64,000 nt of DNA, taken from Candidatus Zhuqueibacterota bacterium (GTDB taxonomy: Bacteria > Zhuqueibacterota > Zhuqueibacteria > JANLFK01 > Oleimicrobiaceae). The DNA is taken from assembly GCA_024655945.1 (NCBI GenBank), contig JANLFK010000002.1, forward strand, positions 242,610 to 306,609, in the 5' to 3' direction. A program made the translations under genes and the position numbers. The notes beneath the pieces were generated by a model. It was not told the origin of the DNA. It did no database searches and saw nothing but the letters and a program-made list of their open reading frames with translations. Shown here piece after piece: positions 1-63,562 of the stretch (position 1 is its first letter; every line of letters starts with the position of its first letter).

Positions 1-494
1 CCGTGTGCGCGCGCAAAGGCCACCACCGCTTGCAGGTCCGCCACCTCCAGCAAGGGGTTGGTCATCACCTCGACATAGATCGCCTTTGTCGTGGGCCGCA
101 GGGCCTGGCGCCACGAGTCGGGGCGATTGCCGTCAACAAAGCTCACCTCGATCCCCAGAGCGGGGAGGTCGACAGCGAAAAGCTCGAGCGTGCCGCCGTA
201 GAGGCAATTCTGCGCCAAGAGGTGGTCGCCGGACTTGAGGAGGGCGAGCACCGTCGTGCTGATGGCGGCCATGCCACTGGCCGTCACCACTGCTGCCTCG
301 GCGTTCTCTAACGCCGCCAGCTTATTCTGCAGCACTTCGTGCGTGGGCGTGTTGTTGTAGCGACCGTAGCGCAGCACTTCGCCAGGCGCGCCGCGGTATT
401 GAAACGTGGCCGACTGGAAAGTGGGCAAGGTGACCGCGCCCAGGATGCGTGGAGATGGCTCACCGGCAAGGACTAACTTTGTGTCTATCTTCAT
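1..494 (-). CDS. PLP-dependent Cys/Met-metabolism enzyme (cystathionine gamma-synthase / methionine gamma-lyase / O-acetylhomoserine sulfhydrylase family). ATG at 494; C-terminus runs off the window edge, so partial.
   Basis: Reverse translation from 494 gives MKIDTKLVLAGEPSPRILGAVTLPTFQSATFQY...NTPTHEVLQNKLAALENAEAAVVTASGMAAISTTVLALL, the typical N-terminus of this PLP family. The plus-strand ORFs 3..311 and 5..238 are antisense artefacts. Confidence 0.8.
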   Translation of the reverse strand, partial: MKIDTKLVLAGEPSPRILGAVTLPTFQSATFQYRGAPGEVLRYGRYNNTPTHEVLQNKLAALENAEAAVVTASGMAAISTTVLALLKSGDHLLAQNCLYGGTLELFAVDLPALGIEVSFVDGNRPDSWRQALRPTTKAIYVEVMTNPLLEVADLQAVVAFARAH

Positions 495-535
495 TCCGTA
501 ACCTCCGCGGGCAGGCCCGCAGCCGGGGCAAGGAC

Positions 536-1642
536 TCAATCCTGCTCGGCGCGCACCTCGACTTCCAAGTGGTAGTGCTTAGCTTCTCCTGGCCCGAGCA
601 TGACCAGCGTGCCACGCTGCCGCTCGGCAACCCGCCCCTCAACATGACAGTTGGCAGGCTCAATGCCCAGGGCGTACACCCCAGCGGCAGGCATCTTCCA
701 CTCCACAAGGCGAGGAAGCGTGCTCCTTTCCCACCGCAGGGAAACCGACAATGCCACCTCGCGCCCAGCGACGGGGAAACGAGGGTTGCTCACAGTCACC
801 TCGGCCAGCTCCCGCGCCCCAGCGGACAAGCCGTCGAGTTCGTGGTAATAAACACGCTCGGTGTAGCCAACAGTGGGCGGATCGAATCGGTCAAAGCCCG
901 CCACGGGGACTTCCTTGTCGCGCGGGACAACTTTCCCCTTGGGGAAGCGCAGCACGGTCTGCTCCGACATCAGAGGGAAGCCGAAGTTAAAGTGGTAGAG
1001 GATCATGTGGGGCACTGGGGTGAAGCCAGCGTTTTCCACGCAGTCGTCGATGACGATGCGGTTCTTGCCGGCCAGGCTGCGGATCGTCCGATGCAGGCGC
1101 AGGTTCTCGGCAAAGATGCGCGTCTGCTCGACCAGGCCGGTGATCGTCATCTCGTATTCGTCTCCGCGCCACTCTGCCGTTACCCCCACCTGCCGGGCCG
1201 GGAGGTGATGGACGCGGCCGTGGAGGCCAAGCTCTTCTTCGCCATCCTGGCAGGGTGCTCCCACTTGCGTCAGGCCACAGGTGATGAGCAATCCGCCCGG
1301 CGCGGTGCGCAGCCATTCCAAGCCCCGCGGGTCGAAGTAAGCGGGGTGCACTTCGCCCGTCACCGCTTGCCAGCTCAGCGGTACGCCATAGAACTCGGTC
1401 AGCCCGATGTCCAGCGCCCGCGACGGATTCACGAAGTAGCTCAGCCCTGCTCCGGTGCGCACCCAAAGCACTTCCACGCCGGCCTCAGGTCCTTCGGCAA
1501 GGCGCATCCTGCGCACCCCGATATGGTTCTCGACTCTCCCCCAGCGAGCCTCAAGCTCCCGTCTTGTCCAGCTGCGCGCGTCGAGCTCCATGACATCACT
1601 CGTCTGTCCACTACCTGCCAGGTGTGCCATCACAGGCGACAA
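536..1642 (-). CDS. DUF4432 / aldose-1-epimerase-like (galactose-mutarotase fold) protein
   Basis: 368-aa ORF. The fold assignment is by overall resemblance only. The start could instead be the internal Met at about 1591. Confidence 0.6.
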   Translation of the reverse strand: MSPVMAHLAGSGQTSDVMELDARSWTRRELEARWGRVENHIGVRRMRLAEGPEAGVEVLWVRTGAGLSYFVNPSRALDIGLTEFYGVPLSWQAVTGEVHPAYFDPRGLEWLRTAPGGLLITCGLTQVGAPCQDGEEELGLHGRVHHLPARQVGVTAEWRGDEYEMTITGLVEQTRIFAENLRLHRTIRSLAGKNRIVIDDCVENAGFTPVPHMILYHFNFGFPLMSEQTVLRFPKGKVVPRDKEVPVAGFDRFDPPTVGYTERVYYHELDGLSAGARELAEVTVSNPRFPVAGREVALSVSLRWERSTLPRLVEWKMPAAGVYALGIEPANCHVEGRVAERQRGTLVMLGPGEAKHYHLEVEVRAEQD

Positions 1643-1935
1643 TTGCTACACCCTGATGCTCTCCCGCCTCGGGGGCACGAGCCAGGGGAGCGTCAGCGAC
1701 CACCAATGCGAGCCGGGCTACCTTTCTCCAGGGAACCCGGTGTGGCCAGTTCCGGTGCAAAGGGTCCGGAGGCCGGCTCCCTCCCCCGCAGCACTGACGC
1801 AACACGTGGGAGCCCTCGCCGGCAACGTCGCTTGGAACTCCCACCTCGGGCAGCAGGTCTGTCACGCTCTTGGGTTCGCCTGCAAGGCTTCTCACCGAAA
1901 GCAAGATCGGAGCCCCTTGGCTCGACACTCTCCTT

Positions 1936-2571
1936 CTACAGAGCCAACGAGACCGCGCTGGCCGTGGCGACCACGGCGACAAGCGCGGCGTAGGAGTACG
2001 CAGGCCTCACTGCCACCACATGTGCCCAGCGGCTCCGCAAACTGCGCGCCAAGCTCTGCCCGAGCCGGAAGGAGGCACTGCTCACGATTGCCGCTAATCC
2101 ACCTTGGGCCAGCACGTAACGCATGATCTTGGGCAAGCCTCCCTGTGTCCACCAGTGATAGCGAACCACATAGGTCATGATGAGCGCGAAGAGGAGGAAG
2201 AAAAACCAAGTGGCCACGCCCACCAGGAGCGGCTGGGTGCTTGGGCCCGCCTTCACCCGGGGACCAAGCACCGAAACGGTGACTTCCACAAAGAAGGCAA
2301 GAAGCACCACGGCAAAGATCTGACAGCCGAAGAAGGGGACGTTCAGGAACTTGAAGAACGCCGCAACCAGCCCTGCGACAAGAATGGCGCCCGGCCTGCT
2401 CTCCAGCACATGGAGCATTCCTACCAGCATCACGGCGAAGGAAGGGAGCACCACAGCCCGGGCCGCGGTGCCGCTCCATGCAAGAGTGGCATCCATCAGC
2501 ACTTCTGCCATGCCCCAGAGACTCCCGAGCATAATCGCCGCCATGAGCCAGCTCCGCTTGGTCACCATCCT
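1936..2571 (-). CDS. Small polytopic membrane protein (5-6 predicted TM helices), possibly an ECF-type substrate-capture (S) component. Lies immediately downstream of AOR.
   Basis: ORF 1936..2682 trimmed to the Met of MVTKRSWLMAAIMLG (2571) so that it does not overlap the AOR stop. Runs of hydrophobic segments are visible. Confidence 0.5.
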   Translation of the reverse strand, partial: RMVTKRSWLMAAIMLGSLWGMAEVLMDATLAWSGTAARAVVLPSFAVMLVGMLHVLESRPGAILVAGLVAAFFKFLNVPFFGCQIFAVVLLAFFVEVTVSVLGPRVKAGPSTQPLLVGVATWFFFLLFALIMTYVVRYHWWTQGGLPKIMRYVLAQGGLAAIVSSASFRLGQSLARSLRSRWAHVVAVRPAYSYAALVAVVATASAVSLAL

Positions 2572-2603
2572 TGTTCCTCCATTCCTTCGAAGGTGCTGCC
2601 CAG

Positions 2604-4424
2604 TCACCGCATCAAGTCCAGCATGTCGGCAATGCCCAAGTTGCGCAGGGTCTCGGCCTTGGGCACACCGTTCTCGTCCCAACCCATGAGCTTGTAGTAC
2701 TCAGCCCTGAGCCTGTCCAGCTCCACCACCTGCCCCTTCGCTGGCCCAGCCGGAAGTGGCTCCGCCACGCACCTCTTGGGCAGAGTGTCGTCGTGGGCGG
2801 TAAAACCCTCACGCAGGTTGTACAAGCGCGCCAGGTTGATGATTCGCTCGCCCACATGGTCCAGTTCGCGCGGGCTGGCGTACTCCAGGCCGGTGCAGGG
2901 ATTGACCATCTGCCAGACTTCCTTGAGGGTGATACCAAATTTGACGAAATAGCAAAGGATGAGGCAGTTGACCACGGCGCTGTCGGTCTGGTTCACTTTG
3001 AACAAGGCTGCCTTCCCTTCCGGCGTCAGCGGGTCGGCACCGCCAAGGATTTCCACCAAGGGGGAGCCGCGCAAGTGGCATGCGCCCCGCTCGGAGATGG
3101 CGTAGCTCAGGCCGACCCCTTTGGCGGCACGAGGCAGATAGCCGGGCATCTCTAAACCCTTGACGTGCATGGCAAAATCTGCGCTGCCAGGGAAATGCGC
3201 GCTGATTTCGCGTACCCCTTTCTCCACTAGCTCTCCGATCCCTTCGCCCTTGGCAATCTTCTCGGTCAATTGCACCAAGGCCTCGCCACTGCCCCACACC
3301 GCCTCGATCCCGTCCAGCTCCGCCTTGCCCACCATGCCCCGCTCGTAGAGCTCCATGACGAAGCCGATGATGTTGCCCACGGTGATGGTATCGACGCCGT
3401 ACATGTCGCACAGGTAGTTGGCATAGATAATCGCCTCGTGGTCGGCAACGCCGCAATTGCTGCCCAAGGCAAAAATCGTTTCATAGTCGGGTCCGTCGAT
3501 GGCGGTGTCGAACTTTGGCGAGTAGGCGATCTTCGAGCAGGCGATGGGGCAGCCTTCGCAGGCGATGTCCTTCTTCCAGTAGTGCTTGCGCCATACTTCG
3601 CCTGCCAGCGCCTCCGCTTTGTCGAATTGGCCATACTGGAAATTGCGGGTGGGCAAGGCGCCGGCGGCGTTGACCAACAAGACGATATTCGGGGTGCCAA
3701 AGTCAACCATTCGTTTGACCTGGCTGCTCATGCGCAGCATGCGGTGGGCAATCCAGACAGCCTCCTCGTACTCCTGGCGGTTGGCAACCTGCACCGAACC
3801 GGTTCCTCGCACGGCGATCCCCTTGAGCTTCTTGGAGCCCATGACTGCGCCGGTGCCTGCTCGCCCAGCGGTGCGCAGGCCGCAAAACACGCCCGAAAGA
3901 GTGGCCAACCGCTCGCCCGCGGGGCCGATCACTGCCGTCTGCACGTCTTGGCCATAACGTTCGCGCAGGGCGTTTGCAGTCTCGGCAGTGTTCTTTCCCC
4001 AGAGGTCAGATGCGTCCACTATTGCCACTGACTGGTTATCCAGAATCAGGGCCTTGGGCTCTTTGGCCGCACCCTTGATGACCACGGCGTCGTAGCCTGC
4101 GTACTTCAGGGTCTGACCAAAGAAGCCCCCGCAGTAGGAATCCATGTAAGTGCCGGTCTTTGGGCTCTTCGCCATCACGCAGAGCCGGCTCGAGGTGGGC
4201 GCGATGGTACCGGTCAGCGGACCCGTGGCGAAGATGAGCAGGTTGTCGGGACCGAGGGCGTCCACCTTAGGCGCCATGCGGGTGTAAAGCAGGTAGGAGC
4301 CAAGTCCTTTGCCCCCCAGGTAGAGGCGGGCTATGTCCTCTTCCAACTCCTCTACGCTGCACGCACCGCTGCTGAGGTCGACGGTGAGAATCTTGTTGGC
4401 GTAGCCTCTATTGTGCATGGACAT
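2604..4424 (-). CDS. Tungsten-containing aldehyde:ferredoxin oxidoreductase family protein (AOR/FOR/GAPOR family)
   Basis: 606-aa ORF. The N-terminus ...YANKILTVDLSSG..., the length and overall architecture are typical of the AOR family. Confidence 0.9.
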   Translation of the reverse strand: MSMHNRGYANKILTVDLSSGACSVEELEEDIARLYLGGKGLGSYLLYTRMAPKVDALGPDNLLIFATGPLTGTIAPTSSRLCVMAKSPKTGTYMDSYCGGFFGQTLKYAGYDAVVIKGAAKEPKALILDNQSVAIVDASDLWGKNTAETANALRERYGQDVQTAVIGPAGERLATLSGVFCGLRTAGRAGTGAVMGSKKLKGIAVRGTGSVQVANRQEYEEAVWIAHRMLRMSSQVKRMVDFGTPNIVLLVNAAGALPTRNFQYGQFDKAEALAGEVWRKHYWKKDIACEGCPIACSKIAYSPKFDTAIDGPDYETIFALGSNCGVADHEAIIYANYLCDMYGVDTITVGNIIGFVMELYERGMVGKAELDGIEAVWGSGEALVQLTEKIAKGEGIGELVEKGVREISAHFPGSADFAMHVKGLEMPGYLPRAAKGVGLSYAISERGACHLRGSPLVEILGGADPLTPEGKAALFKVNQTDSAVVNCLILCYFVKFGITLKEVWQMVNPCTGLEYASPRELDHVGERIINLARLYNLREGFTAHDDTLPKRCVAEPLPAGPAKGQVVELDRLRAEYYKLMGWDENGVPKAETLRNLGIADMLDLMR

Positions 4425-5688
4425 GTCGCGCTCTCCGCTTCCACTCCGTGAGGACGATGGCGCCGCGCTTGCACCATTTTACGCACTCAGGGTCGCCCTC
4501 GCACAGGTCACAGACCACAGGGTAGCCATCCTCGGTGGAGATCAGGTCAAACGGGCAGGCCTCCACACAGGCGCCGCATTGCGTGCACAGGCTCCGTTCC
4601 AGAACGAGGCGCGAGTCAGGCCCAATGGTGAGTGCCCCGGTCTGGCAGGCATCCACACACTGGCCACACAGGGTGCAGACCACCGGACGGATAGGGCTGA
4701 GTTCGTCCCCTAGTGCAGGAAACTGGATACGCAGGCGCGCGCGTGTCTGGCCGTACCCTGGGCTGTGCGCGCGGACGCAGGCCACCTCACAGAGTTGGCA
4801 GCCCACGCACTGTGACGGAACCGGCTTGAGCCGCTGACCAAGGGCCCGCCGCTCTCCCAGGATCTCTGCAATGGTCTTGCCACCGTGCACCAAGGCGACG
4901 ATGTCGGCCACCATCTTCTGAGGGTCCTTGGCCTTGGTGACGTTGCGGCCAAACACCGTGCCGCTGGCGCCGGCGCGCAGTGCCTCGTCCACCAGCTCCA
5001 AAGCGTCGCGCGGCACGTCCGACTTGGCACCGCCTAAGACCAGCACGGGCACACCCGCCTGATCTACTAACTGCTTGAATGACTTCACGTCGCCGGTGTA
5101 GGGGATTTTGAGCGCGTCGGCGCCGATTTCCGCAGCGATGCGCCCCGAGGCGATGAGGATCTCGGCAATATTCACACCGGTGACCATGCCGCCCACGGCC
5201 ATGGGTTCAATGATCAGCGGCAGCCCCATCCTGCGGCACTCCTTGGCAAAGTCAGCCGCCTGCTCGATGTTGATGGCCTCGAACTCATCCCCGTAGCCGA
5301 TGAAGTAGTAGATGGTAATGGCCGAGGCGCCCATGAGCAACGCGTCGCGGGCGCGAGAGGTGGCCATTTTCTTGAAGTTCACCACCGGCAACACGTTGCT
5401 GACATTGGAGGCACCAAGGCGGGGCATGTTCATCCAGTCAGCACGGATGAGCATTGCCGGCGAGTCCTTGCCGCGCAGCAGGTGGCCATGGCGCACCGCC
5501 GTGCCAAAGCTGATGAGAATGCCGTCGGCCCCACCGCGCACCACCAGCTCCAAGATGCGCCGCAGCTCCATGACATTGGGCGTGACATCCGACATCCAGC
5601 CGTGGTCGGCGGCGACGCACACGGCTCGCCCGTCCTTCGGGTTGAACAGGCGGTTCAGCCGCGCCGTCTTACCTGGGGAGCGCACCAT
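4408..5688 (-). CDS. DhnA/FbaB-type class I aldolase (DeoC/LacD superfamily) fused to a C-terminal 2x[4Fe-4S] ferredoxin domain
   Basis: N-terminal part MVRSPGKTARLNRLFNPKDGRAVCVAADHGW... is DhnA-like. C-terminal part carries CVGCQLCEVAC and CTLCGQCVDACQ plus CTQCGACVEACP and CDLCEGDPECVKWC Cys motifs. Start set at the Met 36 codons into the ORF, giving a 20-nt overlap with the upstream gene. Confidence 0.8.
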   Translation of the reverse strand: MVRSPGKTARLNRLFNPKDGRAVCVAADHGWMSDVTPNVMELRRILELVVRGGADGILISFGTAVRHGHLLRGKDSPAMLIRADWMNMPRLGASNVSNVLPVVNFKKMATSRARDALLMGASAITIYYFIGYGDEFEAINIEQAADFAKECRRMGLPLIIEPMAVGGMVTGVNIAEILIASGRIAAEIGADALKIPYTGDVKSFKQLVDQAGVPVLVLGGAKSDVPRDALELVDEALRAGASGTVFGRNVTKAKDPQKMVADIVALVHGGKTIAEILGERRALGQRLKPVPSQCVGCQLCEVACVRAHSPGYGQTRARLRIQFPALGDELSPIRPVVCTLCGQCVDACQTGALTIGPDSRLVLERSLCTQCGACVEACPFDLISTEDGYPVVCDLCEGDPECVKWCKRGAIVLTEWKRRARHVHAQ

Positions 5689-6475
5689 CGCCAGCTCTCC
5701 TCTGGTGCAGATGATCGGCCAGCAGGGCCAACTGCCGGGCATAGTGGTCGCGGGCAACAGCCCTTTCCCCCACGACGATGCCGCGCAGGCCACTGTTAAG
5801 CACCTCGTCCACCTGGCTCGCCTCTGGGATCTCCTCTAAGCGGACAAGCACCGGCACGGCGATCCAACTGCCGATGGTGGCACAGGTGGCCGTCTCACAT
5901 TGTGGGATGATCAAAACATCCGCGCCCAGCTCCTGCATGAACGACACACCGAGTTTGACCGACTCCTCAAAGTTGCCAGGCCCCACCTTGAAGCCGATAG
6001 GGCGAATGTCCACCACCAGCGGCAGAGCTAAGCGATAGCAGTCACGCCCCAGTAGCGACAGCGCTTCGATGTTCTTTGCCTCAGCTTCGTCGTCAAACCC
6101 GAGGAAGAGACTGGCAACCGCCGCACTGGCACCCAACGCTAACGCATCTTCGGCATCCGAGATGAACAGATGCTTGAACTGCGCAGCCGGCAGACAAAAG
6201 TCCGGCCCGCGGTAGGCGTTGCTCCAGTCCACGCGCACCAAGGGGCTTGCCCGCCTCCTGCCCCCAAGCAGCTCGGCGTGATGCTCGGCCTGCCCCGGGT
6301 TCAGGATAACGCCGTCCAGGATCTCGGTCACCTTGCGGAGGACCTCGTCAATGTGCGTGAGTCCAGCGGTGGCGCCCACAGAAGCAGGCAGCGTGGTGTC
6401 CAAAAGGAGCGCCCTCCCGTCTGCTGCACTGATGAAGTCACTGATGCGGATCGTCTTGCCTATGTCGACTTCCAT
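5669..6475 (-). CDS. DhnA/FbaB-type class I aldolase paralog (fructose-bisphosphate aldolase / ADH-synthase family)
   Basis: 268-aa ORF. Paralogous to the N-terminal domain of the adjacent aldolase-ferredoxin fusion. Confidence 0.8.
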   Translation of the reverse strand: MEVDIGKTIRISDFISAADGRALLLDTTLPASVGATAGLTHIDEVLRKVTEILDGVILNPGQAEHHAELLGGRRRASPLVRVDWSNAYRGPDFCLPAAQFKHLFISDAEDALALGASAAVASLFLGFDDEAEAKNIEALSLLGRDCYRLALPLVVDIRPIGFKVGPGNFEESVKLGVSFMQELGADVLIIPQCETATCATIGSWIAVPVLVRLEEIPEASQVDEVLNSGLRGIVVGERAVARDHYARQLALLADHLHQRRAGDGALPR

Positions 6476-6547
6476 CCTTCCTCCGCGAGTCGGCCCGAAA
6501 TATGCCCCAATTCAAGCACCTGGACACCTCAAGAGCGTGCCGAACGC

Positions 6548-6778
6548 TCAGCTGTTCTTGGCGGCCTGTTCCCGTTTCTTCTTGCTCAGCGTGCAAATCT
6601 TAAGAGGAACGTAGAGCGGGCAAAAACCGACAATGCCGGTGAGGAGAAAGACCACTGCCACGATGCCGAGAATGATGGCCAATGTGCCCGAGATGAGGTT
6701 CAGAATGTACAGCAGCGCGATGACCAGCGCCACGAAGATGCGCACGGTCCTGTCGATGGAGCCCATGTTCTTCTTCAT
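6548..6778 (-). CDS. DUF2892 (YgaP-like) small inner-membrane protein
   Basis: 76 aa with the ...GFCPLY... motif typical of DUF2892. Confidence 0.75.
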   Translation of the reverse strand: MKKNMGSIDRTVRIFVALVIALLYILNLISGTLAIILGIVAVVFLLTGIVGFCPLYVPLKICTLSKKKREQAAKNS

Positions 6779-7094
6779 GATTTCCTCCGCTCTTGGGTGG
6801 GATGGTTGTTCAACTGTCGAAAGCGACTCTTGACTGCTCCAAGTCAGGGCGTCTCACCGCCCACATGGTCACTGCCTTTGTGCCTGGCGGAATTTACGAA
6901 ATAGCAAAGTCCCAGTCAAGCGAATTTGCTGGCGAACATGGGCAGTTCAGGCAGCACATGGCGGAGGGCGAAACGCTCCAGCTACGGCTCCGTCTTCCTG
7001 TGGGAGCCGCCTGCCTTGGCGGTTGAACAGAAAGGCAGCGAGCGCCTGGTGGCTCATTTCCCGCCGTCCTCTGGGGAGGCACTCCCCGGCGGTC

Positions 7095-8093
7095 TTAGAG
7101 GATGAGCTTGAGCAGCTCGAACGTGCCGGCCGCCACCAGTGCTGCGCCGGGCATGGTCAGAATCCAGGTGACGACAATGTGCAGAGCCACGCCCCAGCGA
7201 ACCGCGGAAAGACGATGCGTGGCACCAACGCCCATTATGGCGGTGGAAATGACGTGGGTCGTGCTGATCGGGGCGCCGAGCAGCGTGGCCATAAGAATTA
7301 CCGCACCCGCGGAAAACTCGGCGCTGAACCCGTGCACCGGGCGGAGCTTGACCATCTTCATGCCCATCGTCCTGATGACCCGCCACCCCCCCACCGAGGT
7401 GCCCAAGCCCATGAAAAGAGCCGAACCCACGATGACCCAGGTCGGGACGTGAAACTCCTTGATGAAGCCTCCCACCAACAGCGCCGCGGTGATGATACCC
7501 ATGGCATTCTGCGTGTCGTTGGTCCCATGGCTCAGCGCCATGAAGGCAGCAGAACCAATCTGGCCGAAGCGGAAGAACCTATTGACGCGGGAGGGCATCA
7601 TGTTTCTCACGATCCAGAAGATAAGCACAAGCAGGATGTACCCCCAGACGAAGCCCAAGACCGGCGACACAAGCATAGCGATGAATATCTTCTTCAGCCC
7701 TGCCAGCTTTACCACACCCAGTCCGTGGGCCGCACCTGCCGCGCCCACAATGCTCCCCACCAGCGCATGGGTGATGCTGATGGGTATGCCCGCATAGGTG
7801 CACCCGGCGCTCCACACACTTGCGCCCACCAATGAGGAGATGACTACCATCTGGTCCATGGCCGAAGGGTCTACGACCCCTTTACCCATGGTCCTGGCCA
7901 CGGCGGTGGTGAGAAAAGCTCCCAGGACGTTCATGAGCCACGCTAAGAAGATGGCCTGAGCGGGAGTCAAAGCGCGGGTGGAAATGGTGGTGGCGATGGC
8001 ATTGGCCGCATCGTTCATGCCATTGAAAAAATCATACGTCCACGCGAGGGCGACGACAATAGCCAAGAAGGTCAGACTGTCGAAGGGGTGCAT
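7095..8093 (-). CDS. Inorganic phosphate transporter, PiT (PHO4) family
   Basis: N-terminus ...WTYDFFNGMNDAANAIATT... and the mid-protein ...HGTNDTQNAMGII... are the duplicated PiT signature. Confidence 0.9.
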   Translation of the reverse strand: MHPFDSLTFLAIVVALAWTYDFFNGMNDAANAIATTISTRALTPAQAIFLAWLMNVLGAFLTTAVARTMGKGVVDPSAMDQMVVISSLVGASVWSAGCTYAGIPISITHALVGSIVGAAGAAHGLGVVKLAGLKKIFIAMLVSPVLGFVWGYILLVLIFWIVRNMMPSRVNRFFRFGQIGSAAFMALSHGTNDTQNAMGIITAALLVGGFIKEFHVPTWVIVGSALFMGLGTSVGGWRVIRTMGMKMVKLRPVHGFSAEFSAGAVILMATLLGAPISTTHVISTAIMGVGATHRLSAVRWGVALHIVVTWILTMPGAALVAAGTFELLKLIL

Positions 8094-8103
8094 CGCCTCC
8101 TGC

Positions 8104-8715
8104 TCACACGTTCTTCACCGAAATCGCCTCCAGCACATTGGCCACGTCCTCGCAACGGTCGGTGGCCAGCTCCAGGTCCTGATAGAAATCCTTAAGCTTG
8201 ATTATCTCAATGGGGTCAGCGTAGTTGTGGAAAAGCTTGGCAAGACCGTGGCGGAACACCCTGTCCCCTTCGTTCTCCAGGCGATTGATCTCGATGCAAT
8301 GCACGCACATCTGCGCCGGGTGGCGAAGGAGGCTCACGCCGCGCACAATCTCGGCCGAAGCCTCGGCGATGATTTTCGCCAGTTTCACGGCATCTTCGCC
8401 ACGGTTGGTCAATTCGAAGAGATAGACGCGATCGGCGGCAGAATCAACCAGGTCAATCACATCGTCCAGGGCGCGACAGAGGGCGTAGATGTCCTCGCGA
8501 TCGAAAGGGGTGACAAAAGTGGTGTTCAGTTTGTTGATGATTTCGTGGGTGAGCTTGTCGCCCTTGTGCTCCAGCTCCTTGATCTGACGACCAAAGCGCT
8601 CGGCTTCCTTCCCGGACTCGAGCATCTGCACAAGGAGCTGCGCCGCTTCCTGAATGTTGGCGGCAGCCTCGGCAAACATCTCAAAGAATCGCTCGTGCTT
8701 CGGAAGAATCCTCAT
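8104..8715 (-). CDS. DUF47 (PhoU-like, TIGR00153) protein, the usual PiT partner
   Basis: Start placed at MRILPKHERFFEMF. Forms the conserved DUF47-PiT pair with a 10-nt gap. Confidence 0.85.
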   Translation of the reverse strand: MRILPKHERFFEMFAEAAANIQEAAQLLVQMLESGKEAERFGRQIKELEHKGDKLTHEIINKLNTTFVTPFDREDIYALCRALDDVIDLVDSAADRVYLFELTNRGEDAVKLAKIIAEASAEIVRGVSLLRHPAQMCVHCIEINRLENEGDRVFRHGLAKLFHNYADPIEIIKLKDFYQDLELATDRCEDVANVLEAISVKNV

Positions 8716-9081
8716 CGTTTGCGCACCTCGCCATGAAAGTAGACGGCTGTCACGGAACAAAGACGGCCGGACAATATACAAAACCCAACTTTCCCTGTCA
8801 AGACATTATTTCCGTTGCAGTAGGTTTGCCACTGACGCCGTCCTGCTTTGTACCCGCATCGTGGCCCGCCCCCTGCGCCGGGTACCAACCGCCGCCTGCA
8901 CGGCTTGCTTCCTCGCTCGCCAACGTCTCCATCCCGGCGAACGACCTGCACACACGTGGCCACGTCGCGGAGCCGGCGCCCATCGTGCCGGCACAAGAAC
9001 GCCGCCCAGTCTGGACAGGCATGGGCGGCGTCTTGATGTGGACGACAGAGCAATGCTCTTCTGGCTCGCGTTGCGCGGGAT

Positions 9082-10281
9082 TTACGCCCTCGCGTATCCT
9101 TCCCAGCGCTGGCGCAACTGGGGGTCCCGCACAGTCTCGAGCAGGTAATCGGCAAACTCGTGGCCGGTGGCTCCCGTGTCTCGCCCTGTGATGACCAAGC
9201 GCTTCTCGAATTGCCCGCAGATATCCAGGGCCATCTCCAGGCGCTCGGCCTTGTCCGGGTAGCCGATGTGGCGCAGCAGCATTGCGCCGGCGCGGATCAT
9301 ACTGCAGGGGTCTGCGTACTTGCCCCTTCCCTCTTTGATCATGCGCGGCGCCGAGCCATGGATCGCCTCAAACATGGCGTAGCGCTTGCCGATGTTGGCG
9401 CTGCCGGCAGTGCCCACCCCGCCTTGGAACTCCGCCGCCTCATCGGTGAGGATGTCGCCGTAGAGGTTCTGAAGGACAATGACCCGGAACTGCGTGCGCC
9501 GCTTCGGGTCCACAAGCTTGGCAGTCATGATGTCGATGTACCAGCCTTCCCAGGAAATCTCGGGGTAATCTTTGGCGACTTCGCCGGCGACCTCCAAGAA
9601 CAGCCCGTCAGTGGTCTTCACCACATTCGCCTTGGTGACCACGGTAACGCTGTTGATTTTGTTCTTGTGCGCATAGTCGAACGCCATGCGAATGATGCGC
9701 TCGGCCCCCTGGCGTGTGGTCACGGTGAAATCGAAGGCCAGGTCTTCGGTCACCTGGATGCCCTTGCTCCCCAAGATGTAGGCGCCCTCGGTGTTCTCAC
9801 GGAAAAAGATCCAGTCGATTCCCTCCTTGGGCACCTTTACCGGACGGACATTGGCAAACAGGTCCAAGGCACGCCGCATGGCGACGTTGGCGCTCTCAAT
9901 GTTGGGGTAAGGTCCCCCCTTCTCCGGCGTGGTAGTGGGGCCCTTCAGGATTACGTGGCACTTCTTGATCTCCTCGAGCACATCATCAGGGATCGCCTTC
10001 ATGTGCTTCACGCGATTCTCGATGGTCAATCCCTCGATGGTTCGGAAGAGGACTTTGCCGGACTTGATTTCGTCGGCCAGCATCTCCTCCAGCACCCGCT
10101 GTGCCTCAGCCGAGATGATGGGTCCAATCCCGTCGCCGCCGCACACCCCGATGATGATGGGCTTGAGGATAGAGTAGTCGATCCAGTCCTGGGCCTGCTT
10201 CATCTGCTCCACGCGGGCCAGCTGCTCCTCGACAAGCTTGCCAAAATGAGCCTTTGCCCTTTCGATTGCTTCCTGGTTCAT
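9082..10281 (-). CDS. icd: NADP-dependent isocitrate dehydrogenase (isocitrate/isopropylmalate dehydrogenase family)
   Basis: Family motifs are present. Start chosen at MNQEAIERAKAHFGK, which has a GGAGG RBS 5 nt upstream. Confidence 0.88.
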   Translation of the reverse strand: MNQEAIERAKAHFGKLVEEQLARVEQMKQAQDWIDYSILKPIIIGVCGGDGIGPIISAEAQRVLEEMLADEIKSGKVLFRTIEGLTIENRVKHMKAIPDDVLEEIKKCHVILKGPTTTPEKGGPYPNIESANVAMRRALDLFANVRPVKVPKEGIDWIFFRENTEGAYILGSKGIQVTEDLAFDFTVTTRQGAERIIRMAFDYAHKNKINSVTVVTKANVVKTTDGLFLEVAGEVAKDYPEISWEGWYIDIMTAKLVDPKRRTQFRVIVLQNLYGDILTDEAAEFQGGVGTAGSANIGKRYAMFEAIHGSAPRMIKEGRGKYADPCSMIRAGAMLLRHIGYPDKAERLEMALDICGQFEKRLVITGRDTGATGHEFADYLLETVRDPQLRQRWEGYARA

Positions 10282-10329
10282 CTTTTCCTCCACTGCACGA
10301 CTTGGTCGCTGCTCCCTGCTTGCCAACGG

Positions 10330-12267
10330 CTATTGCTGCCCTCTCGTGTAGTTCAGCAAGCCGCCGGCAAGGATGATCGCCCGCTGTCGTTCGCTCAACT
10401 CGTAGACCAACTCCAGTTCCTCGCCTGTGGCTACTTTGCGCGCTATGAGCGGTTGCCCTTTCAGCAGCCGCATCTTTAACTCGGGCAGCTCGAGTTGGTC
10501 CCCCTGGGCAAGACGCTCATAGTCCTCTTCGACCTTGAAACGCAGCGGCAGGATGCCAAAGTTGATGAGGTTGGCCGTGTGAATGCGCTCCAAGCTCTTA
10601 GCAATCACCGCCTTGACGCCGAGGTACATGGGACAGAGCGCGGCATGTTCTCTGGACGAGCCCTGGCCGTAGCTCCAACCGCCCACCACGATGTTGAACA
10701 CCCCCCTTTCCTTGTTCTTCATACAGCGCTCCGGGAAGGTAGGGTCGATCGGCTCGAACACGAAGGTTGCATACTTGGGCACGTTGGAGCGGTACTTGAG
10801 GCGCGAGCCGGCAGGCATGATGTGGTCGGTGGTGATTTTGTCGCCCACCTTCAGTGCCACTTCCACGCGCAAGGCATCTGGCAAAGGCGTGTTGGTGGGC
10901 GGGTCACCGATGTTGGGGCCACGCAGAATCGTCACCTTTTCTGGGTGCTCCGCAGGCGGAAGAATCAAACTGTCATCAATGGTGAACCGCTCCGGCATGG
11001 GGATGGCCGGATAGGGCATCCCTAAGTCGCGGGGATCGGTGATCCCGCCGGTGAGTGCACAAGCGACGGCCGTCTCCGGGCTGACCAAGTAGACCTGTGC
11101 CGACTTTGTGCCGGAGCGGCCCTCAAAGTTGCGATTGTTGGTGCGGATGGAGACGGCATTGGTGGGAGGAGCCTGGCCGTTGCCGATGCAAAAGCCGCAT
11201 GTTGCTTCCATGATGCGCGCGCCCGCGGCAATGAGGTCGCTCAGCGCGCCGCTGGCGGCAATCATGCGCAGCACCTGCTTGGACCCCGGAGCAACAACAA
11301 AGCTGACCTCCGGATGCACAGTTCGCCCTTTCAACACCGCGGCCACGGTCAGCAGGTCCTTCACCGAGGAATTCGTGCAGCTACCGATGCACACCTGGTC
11401 AACCTTGGTACCCGCTATGTCCCGAACGCGGCACACATTGTCGGGGCTGTGCGGCTTGGCAATCATCGGCTCGATGGTGGAAAGGTCCAGTTCGATCACC
11501 CGGTCATACTCGGCGTCTGGGTCAGGAGCAAGCAGCACCCACACGTGCTCGCGCCCCTGTGCCTTCAGGAATCGCCTGGTTACCTCATCGCTGGGGAAAA
11601 GCGACGTGGTCACTCCCAGTTCGGCGCCCATGTTGGTGATGGTCGCCCGCTCTGGGACCGACAGCGTGGCGATGCCTGGCCCGCCGTATTCGATCATCCA
11701 GCCCACATTGCCCTTGGTCGTGAGCATCTCAAGCACCTTGAGGATGACGTCCTTGGCGGCGACCCACGGCTGCAGTTGACCGGTGAGCAGGATCTTCAGG
11801 ACCCTTGGATAGGTGAGGTAAAAGGCGCCACCACCCATGGCCACCGCCACGTCCAGTCCGCCCGCGCCGATGGCCATCATCCCCAGGCCGCCGCCCGTGG
11901 GGGTGTGGCTGTCTGAGCCGAGCAGCGTCTTGCCCGGCACGCCAAATCGTTCCAAGTGCACCTGGTGGCAGATGCCATTTCCCGCCTTGGAGAGATAGAT
12001 CCCGTACTTGGCAGCCACCGACTGCAGGTAGCGGTGATCGTCGGCGTTCTCGAATCCGTCCTGGAGCGTGTTGTGGTCGATGTAGCTCACCGACAGCTCG
12101 GTCTTGACGCGAGGAATCCCCATGGCTTCGAACTGAAGATAGGCCATGGTGCCGGTGGCATCCTGGGTGAGCGTCTGGTCGATGCGGATAGCCACCGGCT
12201 CGCCGGCCTTCATTTGGCCTTCCACCAGGTGAGCAGCAACAATCTTTTGAACAAGATTCTGTCCCAT
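10330..12267 (-). CDS. Aconitate hydratase (aconitase family, 645 aa)
   Basis: N-terminus MGQNLVQKIVAAHL... and aconitase-family Cys ligand regions (e.g. ...CIGSCTNSS...) are present. Confidence 0.9.
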   Translation of the reverse strand: MGQNLVQKIVAAHLVEGQMKAGEPVAIRIDQTLTQDATGTMAYLQFEAMGIPRVKTELSVSYIDHNTLQDGFENADDHRYLQSVAAKYGIYLSKAGNGICHQVHLERFGVPGKTLLGSDSHTPTGGGLGMMAIGAGGLDVAVAMGGGAFYLTYPRVLKILLTGQLQPWVAAKDVILKVLEMLTTKGNVGWMIEYGGPGIATLSVPERATITNMGAELGVTTSLFPSDEVTRRFLKAQGREHVWVLLAPDPDAEYDRVIELDLSTIEPMIAKPHSPDNVCRVRDIAGTKVDQVCIGSCTNSSVKDLLTVAAVLKGRTVHPEVSFVVAPGSKQVLRMIAASGALSDLIAAGARIMEATCGFCIGNGQAPPTNAVSIRTNNRNFEGRSGTKSAQVYLVSPETAVACALTGGITDPRDLGMPYPAIPMPERFTIDDSLILPPAEHPEKVTILRGPNIGDPPTNTPLPDALRVEVALKVGDKITTDHIMPAGSRLKYRSNVPKYATFVFEPIDPTFPERCMKNKERGVFNIVVGGWSYGQGSSREHAALCPMYLGVKAVIAKSLERIHTANLINFGILPLRFKVEEDYERLAQGDQLELPELKMRLLKGQPLIARKVATGEELELVYELSERQRAIILAGGLLNYTRGQQ

Positions 12268-12318
12268 GATGGCCCTTCACACTCCTTTTCTCGACGAGGA
12301 GACACCTCGACAGGCAAA

Positions 12319-12350
12319 GGGGCTGCCCTCAAGGGCACGAGGGCAGCCCC
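12319..12350 (-). other. Perfect 12-bp inverted repeat (GGGGCUGCCCUC / GAGGGCAGCCCC, 8-nt loop) between the citrate synthase stop and the aconitase start. Candidate intercistronic stem-loop or weak terminator/attenuator.
   Basis: Seen directly in the sequence. On the minus strand it is followed only by TTTG, so it is not a strong intrinsic terminator. Confidence 0.4.
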
Positions 12351-12361
12351 AGGCCGCAAGA

Positions 12362-13642
12362 CTACGCTGCGCCGACTTGCTTCTTGACCCAATCGGTTCC
12401 TACCGACTTCGGGCGCTCGATGGGTGCACCCATGGCGCGACCGACGATCAGTTGCGCGCACATGCCCAGAGCTCGCGAGACGCCGAACAGCACCGTGTAG
12501 TAGTCGAACTCCTTGAGGCCGAAGTAGTAGAGTAGCGCCCCTGAACCGGCGTCGACATTAGGCCAGGGGTTCTTGGCCTTGCCATGGGCCTGCAGCACCT
12601 CCGGCACCACCGCAAACAGCCGGTCGACGATCTGGAACACCTTGTCCTGCGCGCAGACGCGCTTGCCAAAGGCGTGGAAAGCGGTGAAGCGTGGGTCGGT
12701 GGCCCGCAGCACCGCATGTCCATAGCCAGGAATGACCTTGCCTGAATTCAGGGTGTCCCAGGCGAACTTTTTCAGCTCCTCATCGCTGGGCACGCCTTTG
12801 TACTTCTCCAGGATCTCCAACACGAATTTCAGGCATTCCTGATTGGCGAGCCCGTGCAGAGGGCCGGCCAACCCGTTCAGTCCCGCAGAAACCGCATAGT
12901 AGGCATCCGAAAGAGCCGAGCCCACCAGGTGGCAGGTGTGAGCGCTCACGTTGCCGCTCTCGTGGTCGCTGTGCAGCACCAGGTACAGGCGCATCAAGTT
13001 GGCGAACTCCCCGGTGGGGTCATCGAACCCCAGCATGCGCACATAGTTCGCACTCCAATCCAGCTCTGGGTCGCCCTTGATAAGCTTGCCATCCTTGAAA
13101 CGGATGCGGTACACACCCGCCGCCACCGCCGGCAGCCGTGCCAAGAGATTGAGCGAGTCCTCCAGCATCGGCTCCCAGTACTCGGTCTTGGTCATGCCCT
13201 CGTCGTAGCGCTTGCGGAACAGCGATTCGCGCTCCATCACCAGGATGGCCGTGTCGAACATGGCCATGGGGTGCGAATCCTTGGGCATCGCGCGCAGCAC
13301 AGCCCACACATACTCCGGGACCTTCGCGCGCTTGGTGAACTCATTGCGCAGGTCCTCCAGAGCGGCCTTGTCGGGCAGCTCTCCGGTGCACAGCAGATAA
13401 AACACCTCCTCGGGCGTCTCGTCGGTGAGCTGGGCGATGGGTATGCCTCTGATAATGAGCCCCTTCTCTGGATCCACCAAAGAAGTGTCGCAGATCAGAG
13501 ACTTGACACCGCGCATGCCGCCGTAGGCCTGGGCCACGGTGACTTCGGAGATGACCTTGTCACCGTGGGTTTTGACCAGGTTGGCAATGTCTTCTCGCAA
13601 ACGCGGGATCTGCTCAGCCAGTTTCTGCTTCAAGGTTGCCAT
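12362..13642 (-). CDS. Citrate synthase (eukaryotic-like ~430-aa type)
   Basis: MATLKQKLAEQIPRLRED... and the overall citrate synthase signature. A strong RBS AAAGGAGGGTG lies upstream. Confidence 0.92.
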   Translation of the reverse strand: MATLKQKLAEQIPRLREDIANLVKTHGDKVISEVTVAQAYGGMRGVKSLICDTSLVDPEKGLIIRGIPIAQLTDETPEEVFYLLCTGELPDKAALEDLRNEFTKRAKVPEYVWAVLRAMPKDSHPMAMFDTAILVMERESLFRKRYDEGMTKTEYWEPMLEDSLNLLARLPAVAAGVYRIRFKDGKLIKGDPELDWSANYVRMLGFDDPTGEFANLMRLYLVLHSDHESGNVSAHTCHLVGSALSDAYYAVSAGLNGLAGPLHGLANQECLKFVLEILEKYKGVPSDEELKKFAWDTLNSGKVIPGYGHAVLRATDPRFTAFHAFGKRVCAQDKVFQIVDRLFAVVPEVLQAHGKAKNPWPNVDAGSGALLYYFGLKEFDYYTVLFGVSRALGMCAQLIVGRAMGAPIERPKSVGTDWVKKQVGAA

Positions 13643-13837: not shown

Positions 13838-14263
13838 TCAACGTGCACCCGAGGCGCGGAAGGGGCTCGGCCCAAGTCTTCTCACGGTGTCCACAAAGTT
13901 GTTGACCATCTGCTGGAACTTGGGCGCCTCGGTGGCCAGGATCCACTCTAATCGGAGCCTTCGCGGGTCAACGCCGAACTGCCGCAGCATGCTGCGCAAA
14001 AGGGCAAACCGCCGCATCGTGCGGAAGTTGCCGCCGACGTAGTGACAATCGCCTGGATGACAACCGGCGATCATCACGCCGTCGGCGCCACGGCGCAGCG
14101 CTTCGATGACAAACTCTGGCTCCACGCGCGAGGTGCACTCCATGCGCACCACGGCAAAGTTCGGCTGCATGGGCAGCCGCGCCACGCCTGCCAGGTCCGC
14201 AGCCGCATCGGCACACCAGTCACAACAAAGCACCAAAACTTTAGGTTCGAACGCCGCAGTCAC
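13838..14263 (-). CDS. mvhD: MvhD-like (methyl-viologen-reducing hydrogenase delta subunit family) [2Fe-2S] protein
   Basis: N-terminus ...PKVLVLCCDWCADAAADLAG... and the ...AGCHPGDCHY... Cys motif typical of MvhD. Confidence 0.85.
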   Translation of the reverse strand: MTAAFEPKVLVLCCDWCADAAADLAGVARLPMQPNFAVVRMECTSRVEPEFVIEALRRGADGVMIAGCHPGDCHYVGGNFRTMRRFALLRSMLRQFGVDPRRLRLEWILATEAPKFQQMVNNFVDTVRRLGPSPFRASGAR

Positions 14264-14292
14264 GCCTCTCTCCTTGCCTCAGATTCCGTCTC

Positions 14293-17200: not shown

Positions 17201-17340
17201 ACCTTGCCGCCTAGCATCGACGACTGGTCCACCAGGTAGACGGGCACCCCCATGTCCGCCAGTTCGATGGCGGCGCGAATCCCGGCAACGCCTGCTCCCA
17301 CCACCAGGACTGCTTGAGTCTTCTCGCTTCGCTCCGCCAC
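14293..17340 (-). CDS. hdrA: HdrA-family flavin/Fe-S protein (heterodisulfide reductase subunit A-like). Unusually large at 1015 aa, with two HdrA-like FAD modules and an internal MvhD-like segment.
   Basis: Two dinucleotide-binding GxGxxG motifs (VVGAGVAGIRAA, VIGGGVTGMVAAL). Several CxxCxxCxxxCP ferredoxin motifs. An internal ...RIGVFLCRCQGEVG... MvhD-like region. Confidence 0.9.
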   Translation of the reverse strand: MAERSEKTQAVLVVGAGVAGIRAAIELADMGVPVYLVDQSSMLGGKVLQLDRLFPTDDCGLCKLLPAVPGEGVSGFCLRRGLLYPNVKVVFDSQLTALEGKPGAFVATMVTSPQFVDPEKCITCGRCIPVCPVEVQDEFNQGLSVRKAVYVRHGLGIPRLYTIDAAACTRCGECVRICPTGAISLDAGPTTQYLHVGAIVAALGFKEFDPSSLSQFGYGRFANVVTSTELERLTSEGGPTQGAVRRPSDGKVPASVAFLQCVGSRDAEHDYCSSACCMFAIKEAAHLKAAGIQSQIFYMDVRAFGKGYHRVYQKAQQELGVAFTRCRVSAVEEHPASKNLVVVYEAEDSSFQRREFELVVLSVGLGPAEQSAALASAIGAKVNRHGFVSYPGFSAVSTGRAGVFACGALTAPRDIPESVAQGLAAAAQAALVVKPGRRDHGGAHQALSPAEHRGAEARIGVFLCRCQGEVGEVLDLQALASAARNLPGVAHVAVVDLLCFQSTLAGVKEAIRAQGLNRVLFGACSPHLYEDRFAQMLAEAGVDRRMLEVVPLREQVGWIHADRGMALEKARFLLHAAAMRLRSTTAAPPGVLKVTPRALVIGGGVTGMVAALDIAAQGFAVHLVEKSGELGGNALLFDRTLEGLDVADFVRKTIEKVRANPRITVHLRSEVTRLDGFVGNFRTTVRRASGAKRQLQHGVVVVATGAVEYQPKEYLYGKNRRVLTQTQLEQRLAKGKLNPSRLKCVVMIQCVGSRDERRPYCSRICCSQAIRNALALKTANPDLAVYVLNRDIMTYGFSEEYYTKAREAGVIFLRYDLAQKPVVRQRNGKLEVLVLDKIIDEMLLFTADLVVLSTGVVAAKNGRLSKVLRVPLDEDGFFAEVNSKFRPLDLARAGVFVGGLAHSPRSLRESVTHAHALAARVTALLTRGELSWQGVYAHPDEELCTGCRICEGACEFDAIRINRVRENGRYKERAEVIQAMCTGCGCCVAACASGAMRQQGRTRDQLMAVIGAALS

Positions 17341-22478: not shown

Positions 22479-22512
22479 GATCTTTCTCCTCTCTTTCGGT
22501 TCTCCGTGCCGC

Positions 22513-63515: not shown

Positions 63516-63562
63516 TGTGATGGCGTCGCCCCGGCCAAGGAGCCAGGCCGGGGCGCGCACGG

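Follow-up and report, generated by a model that had tools for sequence, protein, structure and literature searches.

An aldolase domain fused to the small subunit of an AOR-family oxidoreductase in a conserved bacterial gene triad

Class II tungsten oxidoreductases (WORs) are defined by the pairing of a large subunit, WorL, with a small subunit, WorS, that has four [4Fe-4S] clusters (PMC13328260). Examples include GOR from Caldicellulosiruptor bescii and WOR5/ASOR from Pyrococcus furiosus, and the AorAB core of Aromatoleum AorABC is built along the same lines, with adjacent genes for a pterin-containing large subunit and a four-[4Fe-4S] relay subunit. Here, we describe a related gene triad in a 64,000-nucleotide stretch of DNA, hereafter called the window, from Candidatus Zhuqueibacterota bacterium (assembly GCA_024655945.1, contig JANLFK010000002.1, forward-strand positions 242,610 to 306,609; the DNA is part of a 475-kb contig of JGI metagenome 3300038743). 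The triad consists of ald1, which codes for a protein with the fold of DhnA-type aldolases, a gene for an aldolase-ferredoxin fusion protein, and a gene for an AOR/WOR-family large subunit (the AOR). It shares the large subunit, the four-cluster relay, and the adjacency of their genes with the systems above. Unlike in those systems, the small subunit of the triad bears an N-terminal, 285-residue aldolase that is predicted to be active, and a third gene codes for a paralogue of this aldolase that is predicted to be dead. Also, in comparison with AorABC and its kin, the triad has neither an FAD/NAD subunit (AorC) nor a Bfu module. For C. bescii GOR, the WorLS enzyme that oxidizes glyceraldehyde 3-phosphate (GAP) and typifies clade 20 of the WOR classification (PMC13328260), the likeness to the triad is established for the WorL-WorS architecture only.

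Enzymes that couple aldol cleavage to aldehyde oxidation are known from other settings. In archaeal glycolysis and in the nonphosphorylative Entner-Doudoroff branch, an aldolase is followed by ferredoxin-linked oxidation by an AOR-family enzyme: fructose-1,6-bisphosphate (FBP) aldolase acts with glyceraldehyde-3-phosphate:ferredoxin oxidoreductase (GAPOR), and KD(P)G aldolase acts with an AOR that oxidizes glyceraldehyde. The triad follows the same logic. In those pathways, however, aldolase and oxidoreductase are made as separate proteins, with GAPOR being a monomer from another clade, whereas the two activities of the triad would be physically tied and occur in bacterial lineages. DmpFG and BphIJ are aldolase-dehydrogenase complexes that channel a toxic aldehyde from the aldolase to an aldehyde-oxidizing partner, a logic that we propose for the triad, which is known from its genes. 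Their aldolase is a class II pyruvate aldolase and their dehydrogenase an acylating one that depends on NAD and CoA; a pterin cofactor, an Fe-S wire, a fusion, and a pseudo-subunit are all lacking there. The proteins of the triad may likewise form a stable complex with an aldehyde tunnel, as suggested by the fusion to an AOR-binding subunit and by translational coupling.

Neither the 2026 WOR classification (PMC13328260) nor a 2025 review (PMC12096430) mentions an aldolase, and literature searches for a link between an aldolase and an AOR or a polyferredoxin, and for DUF4432, the family of another gene at this locus, returned nothing relevant. In the literature searched, we therefore found no description of an aldolase joined to an AOR small subunit. 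The fusion protein itself has been deposited many times, with 937 database matches, and it is known there only by generic names.

An AOR small subunit joined to an aldolase

Five consecutive genes on the minus strand span positions 536 to 6475 of the window and are transcribed in the order ald1, aldolase-ferredoxin fusion, AOR, membrane protein, and DUF4432 protein; the location and the order agree with an initial annotation of this DNA. The gene ald1 (positions 5669 to 6475) codes for 268 amino acids, the fusion gene (4408 to 5688) for 426, and the AOR gene (2604 to 4424) for 606. The three reading frames overlap, by 20 nucleotides between the stop of ald1 and the start of the fusion gene and by 17 between the stop of the fusion gene and the start of the AOR gene, with a GGAG ribosome-binding site at each junction. 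The start codon of the fusion gene is the ATG at 5688, which has this ribosome-binding site, rather than the upstream GTG at 5793, and a GGAGGA site precedes the ATG of ald1 at 6475.

The fusion protein matches the Pfam model DeoC (2e-22) and several Fer4 models. Its polyferredoxin domain (approximately residues 286 to 426; window positions 4408 to 4833, minus strand) has four cysteine motifs of the CxxCxxCxxxC type, at residues 294, 338, 368, and 393, and these are conserved across phyla. The initial annotation had counted two [4Fe-4S] clusters here; the motifs point to four. Residues 278 to 418 align to residues 30 to 174 of the 192-residue AorA (8c0z_C; 1.4e-15), almost end to end, and further matches were to WOR5-S (6x1o_B; 8.5e-14), BamC (4z3w_E; 1.6e-12), and WorS from Acetomicrobium mobile (9mqx_E; 7.7e-11). 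By these alignments, the domain is a homologue of the small polyferredoxin subunit of AOR-family enzymes such as AorA, WOR5-S, and BamC, and it is therefore not a mimic of free ferredoxin. The AOR gene thus has an adjacent four-cluster WorS/AorA homologue, as class II WORs do, here as a domain of a larger protein. The architecture of the triad is that of a class II WOR whose WorS acquired an aldolase and which has a pseudo-aldolase as a third subunit.

The aldolase domain (approximately residues 1 to 285; positions 4834 to 5688, minus strand) is a predicted class I, Schiff-base, DhnA-type TIM barrel. Its sequence matches in the Protein Data Bank (PDB) are Methanocaldococcus jannaschii MJ0400 (1e-35), the FBP aldolase (FBPA) from Thermoproteus tenax (1e-29), and LsrF (1e-19), and its predicted fold ranks these proteins alike (Foldseek TMt of 0.86, 0.84, and 0.80, respectively). 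LacD and YihT are distant, with TM scores of approximately 0.6. With the DhnA family, which also includes Escherichia coli FbaB, the domain shares the TIM-barrel fold, the Schiff-base lysine, Asp24, and the motifs of the C1-phosphate (P1) site. K194 aligns with the Schiff-base residue Lys177, and D28 aligns with Asp24; together with Tyr146, these are the catalytic residues of the FBP-cleaving enzymes (PMC4881948). K194, D28, and the retained P1-site motifs GG (residues 219 and 220) and GRN (residues 247 to 249) are invariant among 14 aligned fusion proteins and nearly so among 69 copies from the loci described below (K194 is kept in 65 of them and D28 in 67, and the exceptions are mostly gaps). 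Mean column identity of the domain across phyla is 62%. We conclude that the aldolase domain is probably active as a class I Schiff-base enzyme.

Nevertheless, the domain departs from these enzymes in a catalytic segment. Where the FBP-cleaving enzymes have WSYPRGG, it has IIEPxAxGG, such that the position of Tyr146 is Met, Leu, or Ile and that of Arg148 is Tyr or Val, while an invariant Glu161 occupies the position of Trp144, two residues upstream of the lost tyrosine. Glu161 may take over the acid/base role, by analogy to the glutamate of classical class I aldolases and LacD. The initial annotation had called for a check of the active-site residues of this aldolase; the lysine, the aspartate, and the P1 motifs are in place, and the "YPRG" signature (Tyr146 and Arg148) that marks the FBP-cleaving members of the DhnA family is missing. 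A family-specific insertion, R-x-D-W-x-N-x-x-R, further sets the domain apart, as do its fusion to a polyferredoxin, its pairing with a pseudo-enzyme, and its scores, which fall below the cutoff of every NCBIfam model for a DhnA member. For instance, the fusion protein reaches 152.9 bits on TIGR01949 (ADH synthase; cutoff, 299.45) and 124.5 bits on NF040816 (archaeal FBP aldolase; cutoff, 430).

An exhaustive search placed the fused form at the core of a small subfamily, with unfused relatives at 36 to 45% identity that carry the same E-P and R-x-D-W motifs. Database entries bear out the covalent joining of aldolase and ferredoxin domains that the initial annotation described, although the names used there are generic, namely, "class I fructose-bisphosphate aldolase," "4Fe-4S dicluster domain-containing protein," or "hypothetical protein." The two unfused relatives whose contexts were examined (P0190 and P0192) sit in polyol or sugar clusters. 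As a separate observation, an unfused relative at L084:4886-6849 (unfused relatives here are 42 to 45% identical and have the same motifs) adjoins a Zn-dependent alcohol dehydrogenase, and its cluster also encodes an FGGY kinase, a LarA-like protein, and an ABC transporter for sugars. Such a setting suggests that polyol or sugar catabolism involves a broader DhnA subfamily that has gone unstudied.

The product of ald1 is approximately 31% identical to the aldolase domain of the fusion protein. It matches the NCBIfam model PRK07226 over its full length (1.9e-17), yet far under the cutoff, and scores only 55.1 bits on the ADH synthase model TIGR01949, for which the fusion also fell short. An AlphaFold2 model (pLDDT, 89.5; pTM, 0.89) superimposes on MJ0400 with a Foldseek TM score of 0.83, and the family-specific R-x-D-W-x-N-x-x-R segment is common to ald1 and the presumably active domain. 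Across 63 ald1 homologues, however, the position of the Schiff-base Lys177 is Ile, Ala, or Val, that of Asp24 is Ser in most cases, and both the GGxK phosphate loop and GRN are missing. Because the Schiff-base lysine and the phosphate loop are absent in all 63 homologues, ald1 is predicted to be a catalytically dead DhnA barrel. The initial annotation had spoken of two DhnA-type aldolases, which holds for the fold of both proteins but, as far as catalysis is concerned, not for ald1. The dead paralogue is retained at triad loci throughout, with its fold intact, and presumably serves the active aldolase as a structural partner.

The AOR itself belongs to the AOR/WOR family, as evidenced by full-length matches to Pfam AFOR_N (3.7e-76) and AFOR_C (4.9e-129). 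In the PDB, it matches A. mobile WorL (1.9e-138), P. furiosus AOR (PfAOR; 4.4e-134), AorB (1.7e-121), and FOR (1e-90). Identity is 41 to 42% to A. mobile WorL, P. furiosus AOR, and AorB and 37% to Haloferax WOR83, and among solved structures its nearest relatives are broad-specificity AORs. In a phmmer alignment to 1aor, the CxxCxxxC cluster cysteines are identical, as are Thr243, Glu313, Tyr427, and His448 (PfAOR numbering), four residues that are conserved in aldehyde-oxidizing family members (PMC13328260). The AOR is thus predicted to keep an aldehyde-oxidizing active site. Its match to the NCBIfam GAPOR model NF040818 amounts to 50.3 bits, against a cutoff of 1300, and covers only residues 51 to 134. 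Positions specific to triad AORs, viewed as sequence without coordinates, show no clear new cluster of basic residues near known active-site positions. The metal is likely to be tungsten or molybdenum; no genes for a tungstate transporter or for cofactor synthesis lie within the 10-kb flanks, and an Rfam scan of positions 1 to 9500 gave zero matches at an E value of ≤1 (e.g., to a molybdenum or tungsten cofactor [Moco/Wco] riboswitch).

Conservation and genomic setting of the triad

A scan of one genome per species found 101 relatives, from which 80 loci, all from metagenome-assembled genomes (MAGs), were fetched. They span KSB1, Bacteroidota/Cytophagia, Ignavibacteriota, Zhuqueibacterota, Aminicenantes, Planctomycetota, Thermotogaceae, and many Chloroflexota. 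Among relatives with a name, MAGs of Calditrichaeota and KSB1 are nearest. By tblastn, the order ald1-fusion-AOR is held in approximately 80 of the 80 loci, that is, in essentially every locus not cut by a contig end, and across at least 7 phyla, which is far more than chance would produce. In a neighbor-joining tree of 59 triad AORs, four characterized AORs, WOR83, and one nontriad paralogue, the triad AORs were monophyletic in 100 of 100 bootstraps, which points to coinheritance with the fusion gene. The three genes are translationally coupled and coinherited. One Chloroflexia locus (L030:8085-10362) also has a second AOR, 42% identical, approximately 1 kb downstream of the triad AOR and followed by a separate, unfused WorS-like gene; this second AOR is an ordinary class II WOR outside the triad clade.

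The neighborhoods of these loci are rich in genes of sugar metabolism. PfkB or FGGY kinases lie directly upstream or downstream of the triad, and D-lyxose isomerase, fucose-isomerase-like and xylose-isomerase-like barrels, GH27, GH31-like, and GxGYxYP glycosidases, ABC and SSF transporters, LacI, and ROK recur nearby. In Ignavibacteriales and Bacteroidota, genes for glucose-6-phosphate dehydrogenase (G6PD) and 6-phosphogluconolactonase (6PGL) come directly after the AOR gene. A second subset of loci has FucIso, a class II aldolase, an FGGY kinase, and DUF4432, followed by the triad.

Many Anaerolineae have an operon of 12 to 14 genes around the triad (L031, L050, L056, L062, L066, and L069). 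It comprises PfkB, two (xylose-)isomerase-like barrels, a GlcD-like FAD oxidase with a CCG Fe-S protein, UPF0261, creatininase, a LarA-like racemase, the triad, TauE/SafE, and, at its end, a second UPF0261 with a protein resembling phosphoenolpyruvate (PEP) hydrolase. UPF0261 is a kinase domain (PMC12624787). The operon represents an uncharacterized sugar or polyol pathway in its own right. In many Anaerolineae, a LarA-like racemase and a GlcD/GlcF-like dehydrogenase share the operon with the triad, and these enzymes fit a chiral 2-hydroxy-acid product such as lactate. The window has LarA-like, FAD oxidase, and CCG-type Fe-S genes too (positions 19966 to 23757, minus strand; 414, 478, and 359 amino acids, the FAD oxidase being GlcD-like), with GcvH upstream and a lipoate-protein ligase gene downstream. 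Identity to the Anaerolineae set is just 24 to 29%. The window operon is thus probably not orthologous, and it says little in favor of a shared pathway.

In the window lineage, the membrane protein and DUF4432 genes come after the triad, without an adjacent kinase. The membrane protein (positions 1936 to 2568, minus strand; 210 amino acids) starts 35 nucleotides after the AOR gene and has 5 to 6 hydrophobic segments. It belongs to no known family, with no match in Pfam or NCBIfam, and its only homologues, six in number, are all annotated as hypothetical and give no clue to a substrate. It directly follows the AOR gene in 6 to 7 related loci and is possibly a transporter for the substrate or product. 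At the same position, 19 Anaerolineae loci have a TauE/SafE permease immediately after the AOR gene. The DUF4432 protein (positions 536 to 1591, minus strand; 351 amino acids; Pfam DUF4432, 9.7e-92) resembles aldose 1-epimerases: its only PDB relative is 3ty1, a "hypothetical aldose 1-epimerase" (5.5e-22). DUF4432 occurs near the triad in approximately 12 loci from several phyla and is thus recurrent without being universal. Between the two genes lies a 344-nucleotide noncoding gap (positions 1592 to 1935) that has no Rfam match. A gap of comparable size occurs in a close relative (L002), and the two genes are nearly contiguous in a more distant KSB1 locus (L005).

A small YgaP-like transmembrane open reading frame (positions 6548 to 6778, minus strand; 76 amino acids; a JGI gene call, PF11127) lies just upstream of ald1, and its membership in the unit is uncertain. 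Farther upstream, a promoter-like site (6919 to 6891) and a terminator-like site after a PiT gene (7047 to 7033) possibly bracket the start of a candidate operon. The PiT phosphate transporter and a PhoU_div (DUF47) regulator (positions 7095 to 8781, minus strand) are encoded immediately upstream of the cluster, and the close relative L002 has this pair ahead of its triad as well.

Proposed oxidative aldol cleavage and its alternatives

An electron-transfer subunit of the AOR family is covalently joined to an aldolase that has the residues for covalent catalysis and phosphate binding. On this basis, we lean, with modest confidence, toward a channeled oxidative aldol-cleavage complex that converts a ketose phosphate to dihydroxyacetone phosphate (DHAP) and an aldehyde and then the aldehyde to a carboxylate and reduced ferredoxin. 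The AOR, the aldolase-extended four-cluster small subunit, and the dead paralogue would form one complex, although the physical association, the channeling, the direction, the substrate, and the metal are all inferred. Because DhnA aldolases are ring-shaped decamers (PMC4881948), the dead paralogue probably coassembles with the active barrel in such a ring. A phosphorylated ketose would bind via the conserved C1-phosphate pocket and Lys194 and be cleaved to DHAP and an aldehyde, which would go straight to the AOR pterin site for oxidation to a carboxylate. Two electrons would then run through the [4Fe-4S] cluster of the AOR and the four clusters of the fused domain, five in total, to soluble ferredoxin. 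The acid/aldehyde couple has an E0′ near −580 mV. Exergonic oxidation of the aldehyde would pull the unfavorable cleavage, and the reactive aldehyde would be kept off the free pool.

Because the AOR resembles broad-specificity AORs, and because the aldolase has no FBP signature and sits in sugar-specific operons, the substrates are most likely pathway-specific ketose 1-phosphates that give nonphosphorylated hydroxy-aldehydes, such as glyceraldehyde, lactaldehyde, or glycolaldehyde, with sulfolactaldehyde belonging to the most likely set in some lineages. Conversion of FBP to GAP is less likely. The core logic of the initial annotation, in which an aldolase releases an aldehyde, an AOR oxidizes it, and fused Fe-S clusters take the electrons, gains support from the homology to AOR small subunits, the coupled genes, the conserved triad, and the retained residues of the aldolase and the AOR. 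That annotation had reasoned that its idea would fall if the AOR clustered firmly with generic aliphatic-aldehyde AORs, the aldolases grouped with ADH synthase, and the gene pair was not conserved in relatives. The first two hold in part, but the gene pair is strongly conserved, so the three-part refutation fails.

Several points weigh against oxidative aldol cleavage. Without Tyr146, the domain could catalyze something other than aldol cleavage, and LsrF, which belongs to the same fold family, is a thiolase. Residues specific to triad AORs neither reveal nor exclude a phosphate pocket. Some loci already have a class II aldolase beside the triad, which makes the idea of an aldolase that supplies the aldehyde less tidy there. 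Also, no kinase or isomerase adjoins the module in the window, so that the sugar context is borrowed from relatives, and every triad locus comes from a MAG.

The initial annotation had raised a GAPOR-style module. In a glycolytic module of this kind, the aldolase would cleave FBP (or tagatose-1,6-bisphosphate) and the AOR would oxidize GAP to 3-phosphoglycerate with ferredoxin. The DhnA-family fold with its intact P1-phosphate site agrees with this proposal, as do the PfkB kinases that often adjoin the triad, the G6PD and 6PGL genes of Ignavibacteriales and Bacteroidota, the existence of a bacterial GAP-oxidizing WorL-WorS enzyme in C. bescii (PMC13328260), and the position of the window module, which stands alone near tricarboxylic acid (TCA) cycle genes in the window and a phosphoenolpyruvate carboxykinase gene just past its left end. 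We nevertheless consider it unlikely, given the short, low-scoring match of the AOR to the GAPOR model, its closeness to broad-specificity AORs, the replacement of the catalytic Tyr146 and of Arg148, and the poor score of the aldolase on the archaeal FBP aldolase model, while the mostly sugar-specific operons argue for a nonglycolytic aldehyde. A different assignment, in which the aldolase is the ADH synthase (AroA′) of archaeal-type aromatic amino acid biosynthesis and merely lies beside a generic detoxifying AOR, draws on the best NCBIfam and PDB matches, which are to ADH synthase MJ0400. We rejected this assignment as extremely improbable because the score is roughly half the cutoff, the Tyr of "MYPRG" is missing, and coincidence does not explain a covalent fusion to an AOR small subunit with strict cross-phylum synteny; dehydroquinate synthase II was absent from the recurrent neighbor families, although no direct search for it was made.

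Two further schemes keep the aldolase and the AOR as partners. A variant of sulfoglycolysis, at least in the TauE-linked Anaerolineae, would have PfkB make sulfofructose 1-phosphate, the aldolase release sulfolactaldehyde, the AOR oxidize it to sulfolactate, and TauE/SafE export a sulfonate or sulfite. The permease gene after the AOR in those 19 loci suits it. A PfkB kinase, a class I aldolase, and a mutarotase-like protein also parallel YihV, YihT, and YihR, and sulfofructose-phosphate aldolases are among the fold matches, albeit distant ones. The scheme is improbable, however: the window lineage has an unrelated membrane protein where TauE would be, the TauE family is functionally broad, the locus neighbors include no consistent YihQ-type sulfoquinovosidase or desulfonation genes, and MJ0400 and FBPA are far nearer relatives of the aldolase than YihT is. 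Alternatively, the complex might run in reverse as a reductive aldol synthase, with reduced ferredoxin driving the AOR from a carboxylate (e.g., 3-phosphoglycerate, glycerate, lactate, or glycolate) to an aldehyde that the aldolase condenses with DHAP, for ATP-free synthesis of a ketose phosphate; the favorable condensation would pull the unfavorable acid reduction, and a hetero-oligomeric aldolase ring would organize several AOR units and Fe-S wires. AORs are stated to be the only known reducers of nonactivated acids (PMC9295118). The vanishingly low aldehyde concentration would require tight physical coupling, and the window encodes an RnfC-like protein, a sign of a ferredoxin-based economy. 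We regard biosynthetic operation as decidedly improbable, since the neighbors are catabolic (glycosidases, uptake systems, kinases, isomerases, and LacI repressors) and no biosynthetic partners recur. As a matter of speculation, the aldolase domain might instead convert DHAP to methylglyoxal, which would then be oxidized to pyruvate.

Energy metabolism in the window and the meaning of the triad

Genes for central and energy metabolism lie elsewhere in the window. Citrate synthase, aconitase, and isocitrate dehydrogenase are encoded at positions 9082 to 13642, and directly upstream (13838 to 17340, minus strand) are a gene for a 1,015-amino-acid HdrA-like flavoprotein/Fe-S protein and then an MvhD/FlpD-like gene; from its sequence, the pair is a possible flavin-based electron-bifurcation module beside TCA cycle genes. 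The RnfC-like gene (62187 to 63560, minus strand; Complex1_51K, SLBB, and RnfC_N) points to an Rnf complex in the organism and to an energy economy based on ferredoxin. A 768-amino-acid protein (50164 to 52470, minus strand) whose sole domain match is PPDK_N, the PEP/pyruvate-binding domain, is encoded next to glutamate dehydrogenase, and this composition is unusual for a relative of PEP synthase or pyruvate phosphate dikinase.

Of 92 tungsten oxidoreductase clades, only 5 have a defined physiological role (PMC13328260). An AOR small subunit that is welded to the presumed supplier of its substrate offers a direct, testable way into what an entire clade of bacterial AORs does in sugar breakdown by abundant uncultured anaerobes, including Anaerolineae, KSB1, Ignavibacteriota, and Aminicenantes. 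The finding is of clear interest to the fields of tungsten enzymes and anaerobic sugar metabolism, and also to biocatalysis, for cleaving sugar phosphates oxidatively or, run backward, for making sugars from acids. If oxidative aldol cleavage is correct, then the complex would be a case of channeling that joins a Schiff-base aldolase, a conserved pseudo-enzyme partner, and a pterin/Fe-S oxidoreductase, and these anaerobes would draw low-potential electrons for ferredoxin from the half of a sugar that becomes the aldehyde while avoiding free toxic aldehydes.

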